Origin: a virus
Lineage: Duplodnaviria > Heunggongvirae > Uroviricota > Caudoviricetes
Direction: 5' to 3' (one strand)
IMG/VR virus record: IMGVR_UViG_2778261569_000004
Length of the DNA: 13,057 nt
A model generated the notes under the pieces. It was not told where the DNA came from. It was given only the letters and a program-made list of their open reading frames with translations, and made no database searches. The position numbers and the translations under genes are program-made. The stretch's first letter is position 1. Each line of letters opens with the position of its first letter. This document shows, in pieces, positions 7,040 through 8,772 of the stretch.

Positions 7040-7210
7040 ATGCAACAGTTCGCTATTGCAGGGGCGGCATCGGTTCGCCCTTTCAACCCGATTTTATCGG
7101 TACAGCATTCACGAAAAAATATTTTAACCGGAGCAGACTTTAAACAACCAAGAATGAAAAGCTTGCTCGAAAAGCTTTGGGATATTTTGAAACAACAAGG
7201 CCGCCCATGA
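7040..7210 (+). CDS. Hypothetical small protein (56 aa)
   Basis: ATG 7040 with a GAAGGAG Shine-Dalgarno 6 nt upstream; in frame with the longer TTG-initiated ORF in the track (6935), which I consider an over-extension. Confidence 0.4.
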   Translation: MQQFAIAGAASVRPFNPILSVQHSRKNILTGADFKQPRMKSLLEKLWDILKQQGRP

Positions 7211-7377
7211 GTTTTACAGATAACTGGTCAGACGAAGAATTCATTCGTCAGATGAAAGAATTAATCGGTAACGAAGGAGATATTCATGTCACTTGCAACC
7301 ACCGTGAAGGAGAGCAAGTTACAGAGACGCATGTACACGCAGCAGGCGTTAATGTATCGCCAGAAGGGAGATCGTGA
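7207..7377 (+). CDS. Hypothetical small protein (56 aa), directly upstream of erf (Arf-like position)
   Basis: ATG 7207 overlaps the stop of the preceding gene (ATGA). Its position matches P22 arf, but that is not verifiable by eye. Confidence 0.35.
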   Translation: MSFTDNWSDEEFIRQMKELIGNEGDIHVTCNHREGEQVTETHVHAAGVNVSPEGRS

Positions 7378-7466
7378 AGGTGTTCGCGTATTTTTAAATG
7401 CGGCAAAGACTGAAGTATTAAATCAGCGTTATTTCCTTGGGCCATGTCCATTCTGAGAACAATCAT

Positions 7467-8072
7467 ATGAGCAAAGAATTTTACGCAAGACTGGCAGCTA
7501 TTCAGGAAAATCTGAACGCGCCCAAGAATCAGTACAACTCATTCGGTAAATATAAATACAGAAGCTGCGAAGACATTCTTGAAGGCGTTAAGCCGTTACT
7601 GAATGGTCTGTTTTTATCAATCAGCGATGAAGTTGTGTTGATTGGTAATCGGTATTACGTGAAAGCCACGGCAACTATTACCGATGGCGAAAACAGTCAT
7701 ACGGCAACCGCTCTTGCACGAGAGGAAGAAAGCAAGAAAGGAATGGATTCTGCACAAGTTACGGGAGCTACAAGCTCTTATGCACGCAAGTATTGCCTCA
7801 ATGGTTTGTTCGGCATTGATGATGCGAAAGATGCAGATACAGACGAGCATAAACATCAGCAGAACGCAGCAGCAAAGCAATCAAAACCATCACCTACACC
7901 TGAACAGGTTCTAAAAGCATTCACTGACGCAGCATTGCAGAAAAACACCGTAGAAGAGCTTAAACAGGCGTTCGCCAAAGCGTGGAAGATGCTCGAAGGC
8001 ACACCGGAGCAGCACAAAGCGCAGGACGTTTACAACATCAGACGAGACGAATTAGAAGGAGCGGCTGCTTAA
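7467..8072 (+). CDS. erf: Erf-family single-strand annealing recombinase
   Basis: N-terminal region MSKEFYARLAAIQENLNAPKNQYNSFGKYKYRSCEDILEGVKPLL matches my recollection of P22 Erf closely. Start at ATG 7467, not the upstream start in the ORF track. Confidence 0.8.
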   Translation: MSKEFYARLAAIQENLNAPKNQYNSFGKYKYRSCEDILEGVKPLLNGLFLSISDEVVLIGNRYYVKATATITDGENSHTATALAREEESKKGMDSAQVTGATSSYARKYCLNGLFGIDDAKDADTDEHKHQQNAAAKQSKPSPTPEQVLKAFTDAALQKNTVEELKQAFAKAWKMLEGTPEQHKAQDVYNIRRDELEGAAA

Positions 8073-8455
8073 TGGCACATTCGATTACTGTAAGACTAAA
8101 CAAGCCCGCAAGAGAGTTTCAGGCCGGGGAAAATATCGGATTCAACATCCGTGCTGGCGTTCAGTATTACGATCGCCAGACAAAAAAGAAAGAATGGACA
8201 AACTACAACGCCGTTGTATTTGCCAAGCCGGGAGCGCAAGCGGATTACTACCGTAGTGTTCTTGTTGAAGGTGGCATTGTAGAAATTACCGGAGAAAACA
8301 TCAGGGTTGATGTTTATCAGGGGCAAAATGGTCAATCAATCACTCTTGAATTACTGAATGCAAAGATTGGATTTGCAGCTTCAGGAAATGGCCCGCAGCA
8401 GCAAAGTAGTAACCAGCAGAACACCCCTGTATACGACGATTCCATCCCATTCTGA
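8072..8455 (+). CDS. Putative ssDNA-binding protein with an SSB-type C-terminal tail (128 aa)
   Basis: ATG 8072 overlaps the erf stop (TAATG). C-terminus ...GNGPQQQSSNQQNTPVYDDSIPF has a Gln/Asn-rich linker ending in DDSIPF, mirroring the E. coli SSB tail (DDDIPF). The N-terminal region is not canonical SSB by eye, so the OB-fold assignment is inferred. Confidence 0.55.
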   Translation: MAHSITVRLNKPAREFQAGENIGFNIRAGVQYYDRQTKKKEWTNYNAVVFAKPGAQADYYRSVLVEGGIVEITGENIRVDVYQGQNGQSITLELLNAKIGFAASGNGPQQQSSNQQNTPVYDDSIPF

Positions 8456-8478: not shown

Positions 8479-8772
8479 ATGCCAGCGCCTCTGTATGGTG
8501 CGGATGACCCGCGCCGCTGTTCCGGCAATTCCGTATCGGAGGTGCTGGATAAATTCAGGAAAAATTACGACCGGATAATGTCGCTACCGCAGGAAACAAA
8601 AGAGGAAAAGGAATTTCGCCACTGCGTATGGCTTGCAGAGAAAGAAGAACGCGAGCGAATTTACCAGACATCAATCCGACCATTCCGCAAAGCCACATAT
8701 ACCCACTTCCCTGAAATTGACCCGCGCCTGCGTAATTACCGCTCACGCTATGGCGCTATCAGTAATAACTGA
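8479..8772 (+). CDS. Hypothetical early protein (97 aa); size and position compatible with an Abc2-like anti-RecBCD protein
   Basis: ORF track. Lies downstream of erf, where P22 carries abc1 and abc2. The Abc2 assignment is positional and from memory only. Confidence 0.4.

Follow-up and report, generated by a model that had tools for sequence, protein, structure and literature searches.

The gene between erf and abc2 of HK97-type lambdoid phages probably encodes a strongly diverged SSB

The 127-aa protein encoded directly after erf in the window (the whole 13,057-nt stretch of caudoviricete DNA analysed here, IMG/VR record IMGVR_UViG_2778261569_000004) can be placed with reasonable confidence, from profile comparisons and a structural model, in the superfamily of bacterial SSBs (proteins binding single-stranded DNA), as a strongly diverged member. 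By sequence comparison it is the ortholog of gp40 of phage HK97, and it quite probably serves as the SSB of an Erf/Abc2 recombination module, in which its OB domain would bind ssDNA and its C-terminal tip would recruit Erf and/or host partners of SSB. The SSB identity of HK97 gp40 is already known as a prediction, both from PHROGs and from a 2025 survey in Genome Res of the recombination modules of lambdoid phages (PMC12315714), in which the predicted structure of gp40 resembled bacterial SSBs and the protein was named SSB-1b. The assignment in that survey was made from AF3 fold similarity only, and the tail and the DNA-contact residues were not discussed. Added here are sequence-level homology, conserved DNA-contact residues, statistics of tail conservation, the size of the family and evidence from replacement in the slot after erf.

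Locus, gene structure and distribution

The SSB-1b gene begins inside the stop codon of erf: the A of the SSB-gene ATG doubles as the final base of the erf TAA (8070-8072; 'TAATG'), in agreement with the overlap reported in the preliminary description. The length of 128 aa given there is one too many, as the 128 codons of the gene include the stop and the protein has 127 aa. Together with a Shine-Dalgarno-like motif in the 3' end of erf (Table 1), the overlap suggests translational coupling of erf and the SSB gene. A longer ORF with a GTG start at 7982 was rejected, because the homologs start further in: the N-termini of nearly all full-length homologs shown read M-[AS]-H-[ST]-[IV]-T, a few being one residue shorter (MHSIT or MHTIT). 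Elsewhere the window is made up of a lambdoid early region of mosaic structure, with genes for a DnaB-like helicase, O, cII, cro, cI, N and ral.

Table 1. Features of the erf-SSB-1b-abc2 region (positions in the window)
Feature	Position	Strand	Remarks
Second small ORF upstream of erf	7207-7377	+	phrog_2123 'recombinase' E 3.9e-39
Small ORF just 5' of erf, P22 Arf slot	7286-7456	+	56 aa; PHROG 1723 'recombinase' E 4.5e-34
erf	7467-8072	+	201 aa; Pfam ERF PF04404 E 1.5e-44; PHROG 155 E 1.6e-57
Shine-Dalgarno-like GAAGGAG	8055-8061	+	In 3' end of erf; 10 nt before SSB-gene ATG; read from sequence
SSB-1b gene (HK97 gp40 type)	8072-8455	+	ATG 8072; TGA 8453-8455; 127 aa
SSB-1b residues 1-103, predicted OB-fold ssDNA-binding domain	8072-8380	+	
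SSB-1b residues 104-120, Q/N/S/G/P-rich disordered linker SGNGPQQQSSNQQNTPV	8381-8431	+	Low pLDDT; length variable among homologs
SSB-1b residues 121-127 YDDSIPF and stop codon	8432-8455	+	Acidic-hydrophobic tip, bacterial SSB-Ct type
abc2, anti-RecBCD protein 2	8479-8772	+	Last gene of recombination module; Pfam PF11043 E 4.3e-64

The two small ORFs upstream of erf share 92 nt, read in different frames, and match separate PHROGs, both labelled 'recombinase'. In the corresponding region of HK97, which also carries some substitutions, two 1-nt insertions join them into one 83-aa CDS, and the window matches phage mEp234 as far as the mEp234 record extends in the alignment. Sequence comparison found no similarity to P22 Arf for either ORF.

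Over the 989 bases of erf and gp40 (7467-8455), DNA identity was 97.7% to HK97 and 97-98.5% across HK97, HK106, HK542, several mEp phages and Stx-converting phages. HK97 carries this gene too, likewise between erf and abc2 and with the same tail; its CDS is 390 nt long (129 codons without the stop) as against 127 aa for the window copy, and there is otherwise essentially no difference between the two. The order erf-ssb-abc2 was found in 80/80 complete loci (79 from IMG/VR, and HK97), although the IMG/VR search returned near-identical loci only and these add no diversity; one further IMG/VR locus, lying outside the 80, stops before the abc2 slot. A scan of GTDB genomes for the family gave 11 loci. 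Among 5426 complete E. coli genomes the gene was present in 578 (~11%), with up to four copies per genome, and in E. coli O111:H-/H8 STEC chromosomes (RefSeq E. coli) it was 100% identical. The family as a whole is small and discrete: a family-profile search among 1.84 billion cluster representatives yielded 216 representatives (50%-identity clusters) at E<=1e-3.

Existing labels for the gene vary. The HK97 record calls it 'Gp40' only, the E. coli records listed carry it as 'hypothetical protein' (PGAP), and the record of phage HF4s already names it 'ssb protein'. A literature search for 'DDSIPF' found no paper.

A natural deletion was seen in mEp234 (L105, NC_019715), in which the SSB-1b gene is cut to 64 aa (1653-1847) and abc2 is absent while erf is intact. 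This suggests that SSB-1b and Abc2 are dispensable for the growth of this phage, at least in the laboratory.

Relationship to bacterial SSBs

The AF2 model of the 127-aa protein is an OB barrel (mean pLDDT 84; 91-96 over most of residues 1-100), and the modelled domain has SSB topology. In a Foldseek search with this model, the best 50 matches were all SSB or PriB, the best of them being bacterial and mitochondrial SSBs and PriB. Absence of an OB fold had been named beforehand as the observation that would count against an SSB; the barrel is present in the model.

At the sequence level the relationship is distant. Pfam SSB (PF00436) gave no match to the window protein even at E<=1, and TIGR00621 (ssb) stayed below threshold (E 0.052; 13.9 bits vs a cut-off of 53.95), which bears out the preliminary remark that by eye the protein does not look like a canonical SSB. 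PF00436 matched just nine of 45 relatives, weakly (best E 0.0038). Against PDB chains, neither a search with the single protein nor one with a close-homolog profile returned anything relevant, and SSBs were reached by the broader family profile only. The match to PHROG 44, 'single strand DNA binding protein', was strong (E 1.6e-27) but is probably not independent, because homologs of gp40 are likely members of that cluster.

The link to bacterial SSBs became clear in profile comparisons. With hhalign, an alignment of close homologs matched E. coli SSB at a probability of 86% and an alignment of 53 diverse members at 97.5% (E 6.8e-12), with the tail and the linker of low complexity contributing part of the score. 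Searched against solved structures, the family HMM matched Klebsiella SSB (1.2e-6), E. coli SSB (3.3e-5) and yeast mitochondrial Rim1 (1.4e-4). Since Rim1 is without an IPF tail, the last of these matches rests on the OB domain alone.

The residues that would contact DNA are also kept. In E. coli SSB, W40, W54, F60 and W88 stack on ssDNA; in the hhalign comparison, on which this correspondence depends, they align with Y32, W42, F50 and Y82 of the window protein. Y32, W42 and F50 were conserved in 44-45 of 45 family sequences and position 82 was Y or F in all 45, and the OB domain is the best-conserved part of the family.

With E. coli SSB (PF00436), and with the phage-borne copies of it termed SSB-1 (ES18, Sf6 and ABTNLsp11242), SSB-1b shares the OB domain, the aromatics at stacking positions, and an acidic tip with the ending IPF behind a disordered linker. 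On the other hand, its identity to bacterial homotetrameric SSBs is just ~15-20% in structural alignments and its scores fall below Pfam and TIGRFAM thresholds, its linker has 17 residues in the window vs about 50-60, and its tip reads DDSIPF vs DDDIPF. The suggestion of a divergent phage SSB, one of two readings that the preliminary description had offered, is supported by the modelled OB barrel, the structural matches to SSB and PriB, the profile links and the conserved aromatics.

The Gln/Asn-rich linker and the host-SSB-like tail that had been pointed out earlier were both recovered. Residues 104-120 contain five Q, three S and three N (pLDDT <50 in the AF2 model for residues 107-120) and are followed by YDDSIPF, and in profile comparisons this tip aligns with the E. 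coli SSB tip, DFDDDIPF. An xPF ending was shared by 82 of the close homologs (109 full-length sequences) and by 62 of the representatives of 50%-identity clusters (117 full-length sequences), ~20 more of the latter having near variants (DDDIPFN, DDDIPW or DDDILF). Many relatives end in exactly DFDDDIPF; in the Enterobacterial clade Ser consistently replaces the third Asp, and DDSIPF is the ending of most close homologs. Across homologs the linker before the tip ranges from 13 to 75 residues, and retention of the tip behind linkers so different in length argues that it is under selection and not an accident of one sequence.

Departures from this ending were of several kinds: i) a metagenomic subclade of SSB-1b (L088/L089, 3501-4013; P0094-P0110) has a long Q/P-rich linker and no acidic IPF tip, ending in ...NFNQPQR or ...GGFPQHQG, and in L088 the tip-less gene still follows an Erf gene, whose product has a different, shorter C-terminal domain, with a DNA_pol_B_exo2 exonuclease gene upstream; ii) a further variant of SSB-1b (L084, 2591-3070; P0103, P0112 and P0120) ends in ...PDDDWV or ...ADDGWV, not IPF, and its gene follows an Erf gene and has a gene of the RdgC family (PF04381) two genes downstream; iii) several family members (P0127, P0149, P0153, P0168, P0180, P0195, P0196, P0233, P0264, P0098 and P0113) extend beyond the Phe by one to five residues (DDDIPFN, DDIPFS, DDDIPFD or DDDIPFNQGGR); iv) in P0125, P0155, P0160 and P0176 another common ending (PFAPVGLQ..., FAPIGLMH..., FAPIGLQF... 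or FDPVGCVG...) replaces the acidic tip, and it may be another partner-binding peptide. As the free carboxylate of the terminal Phe of E. coli SSB takes part in the docking contact, the extended tails may differ in binding, or the stop codons of these genes may have been called wrongly.

The slot after erf and the proposed function

Directly upstream of the relatives an Erf-like gene was found in prophages of Serratia, Yersinia and Rahnella as well as in phages from metagenomes, a Sak4-like gene (AAA_24) in Leminorella and an exonuclease gene in a Coxiellaceae MAG; in three loci the upstream neighbour was unrecognised. The slot between erf and abc2 is itself variable among phages. Salmonella phage vB_SalP_ABTNLsp11242 has, in the identical slot behind an Erf with 88% identity to that of the window, a canonical SSB (PF00436 E 2.2e-40) that ends in MDFDDDIPF, and in ES18 a canonical SSB likewise comes directly after Erf. 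P22 has Abc1 between erf and abc2. Exchange of Abc1, canonical SSB-1 and SSB-1b in one slot supports the functional equivalence of SSB-1b with an SSB. Abc1 itself, although in the same slot, has no sequence similarity to SSB-1b, and its annotation is that of an accessory protein against RecBCD and not of an SSB; homology of the two was rejected, no BLASTP alignment to P22 Abc1 being found at E<=100.

The closest tested precedent is the SSB of phage HK620 (HkaK, 'SSB-2'), whose gene also lies directly after that of the annealing protein and before abc2 (PMC5928155). It raises Sak4 recombineering about tenfold, and its last six residues, NDYPPF, are required to load Sak4 onto SSB-coated ssDNA (PMC5928155). 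Loading and stimulation of an annealing protein by this tip provide the working model for SSB-1b. The two systems differ in that HkaK is described as lacking homology to bacterial SSB (PMC12315714), unlike SSB-1b, that the partner of the HK620 protein is Sak4 (RecA-like) whereas Erf lies beside SSB-1b, and that the HK620 SSB has been tested experimentally while the role of gp40 is predicted. More generally, annealing proteins depend on the C-terminal tails of SSBs (PMC12054835), and the HK75-type module was described as an anti-RecBCD protein, an SSB and an annealing protein (PMC12315714).

On this model, SSB-1b would be made together with Erf (from an overlapping stop and start, with its own ribosome-binding site) and with Abc2 in the early-left module of a lambdoid prophage. 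Abc2 would redirect RecBCD, and the phage SSB would coat the ssDNA arising from phage recombination and replication. The exposed tip would then bring Erf, and very likely host SSB-interacting proteins too, onto the SSB-coated ssDNA, and Erf would anneal the coated strands. The analysis shows the gene structure, the homology and fold, the conserved DNA-contact aromatics and tip, and the association with annealing proteins in the genomes; the ssDNA binding, oligomeric state and tip partner of SSB-1b are inferred.

A more specific version of the model would have the C-terminal domain of Erf dock the SSB tip, with DDSIPF tuned for preference for the phage SSB or for avoidance of host partners, and the two exchanged as a co-adapted cassette; we regard this as unlikely. 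The AF2 model of the window Erf shows an annealing domain at the N-terminus (~1-122), which a disordered linker (125-141) joins to a three-helix C-terminal domain (145-196). Identity to P22 Erf is 74% overall and ~90% over residues 1-145, divergence being concentrated in the C-terminal ~50 residues. One recombinant supports the cassette: in a Salmonella prophage contig (L103, 2001-3001), nt 1-470 of erf are 97-100% identical to P22, while nt 480-618 are 98% identical to the window/HK97 type and run on into SSB-1b, so that the mosaic junction falls at the boundary of the Erf linker and C-terminal domain. On the other hand, the HK97-type C-terminal domain occurs with SSB-1b and also with a canonical SSB (ABTNLsp11242), and the P22-type domain with Abc1 (P22) and also with a canonical SSB (ES18). 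The occurrence of both types with a DDDIPF-tailed canonical SSB counts against co-adaptation, and the candidate rule that the type of Erf C-terminal domain tracks the presence of an SSB was rejected as a strict one, since neither type is exclusive to SSB. The C-terminal domain of lambda Beta binds SSB; compared with it by hhalign, the Erf C-terminal domain gave a probability of 0.1%, and a Foldseek search of the PDB with the whole Erf model as query found no match at E<=0.001.

Partnership with Erf has to be weighed against a broader role, that of a general-purpose phage SSB which would stand in for host SSB, or add to it, at phage replication forks and wherever phage ssDNA arises, whose place after erf would be a convenience of the operon and whose host-like tail would engage host proteins of replisome and repair (chi, PriA, RecQ and ExoI). 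A tip just one residue off the E. coli DDDIPF, relatives ending in precisely the E. coli sequence, relatives that adjoin different annealing proteins or none recognisable, and the finding that Erf with either type of C-terminal domain may have a canonical SSB after it, or none as in P22, are all in its favour. Yet the gene lies between erf and abc2 in every one of the complete close loci, with its start overlapping the erf stop in the window, and it directly follows an annealing protein in several distant genera too; moreover the tested HK620 SSB acts specifically on the neighbouring annealing protein via its tail (PMC5928155). We therefore consider a role without any specific Erf partnership unlikely, and the two readings are compatible, not mutually exclusive.

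The second reading of the preliminary description, that the protein is purely a mimic of the SSB tail, fared worse. Such a decoy would not act via ssDNA binding and would draw host partners of SSB such as ExoI, RecQ and RecJ away from host SSB, sparing phage recombination intermediates. The host-like YDDSIPF tip is in keeping with it, as are the Enterobacterial Ser, which could shift partner preference, and the presence in the module of another host-takeover protein, Abc2. However, the OB domain and the aromatics at all four ssDNA-stacking positions, for which a pure decoy would have no need, belong to the most conserved part of the family, and a canonical SSB substitutes in the same slot in related phages; this makes a pure decoy very improbable, and competition of SSB-1b with host SSB for partners may occur as a side effect. 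A PriB-like primosome accessory protein is scarcely credible: PriB, a product of the rpsF-priB-rpsR operon, has neither a disordered linker nor an acidic IPF tip, whereas the window protein has the tail and sits in a phage recombination module, and the family profile matches SSBs, not PriB, by sequence.

Implications

Current concepts are unchanged by what follows for annotation, recombineering or defence. In roughly one in nine complete E. coli genomes, as in many Stx-converting and HK97-like phages, the gene is present as 'hypothetical protein', and renaming it as a divergent SSB appears reasonably safe. For recombineering, Erf and its cognate SSB are a natural pair to test, because how active an annealing protein is hinges on a matching SSB tail. 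Bacterial defence systems are also often triggered by phage SSBs and recombinases or directed against them, and it is therefore useful to know that HK97-type phages probably encode an SSB of their own.
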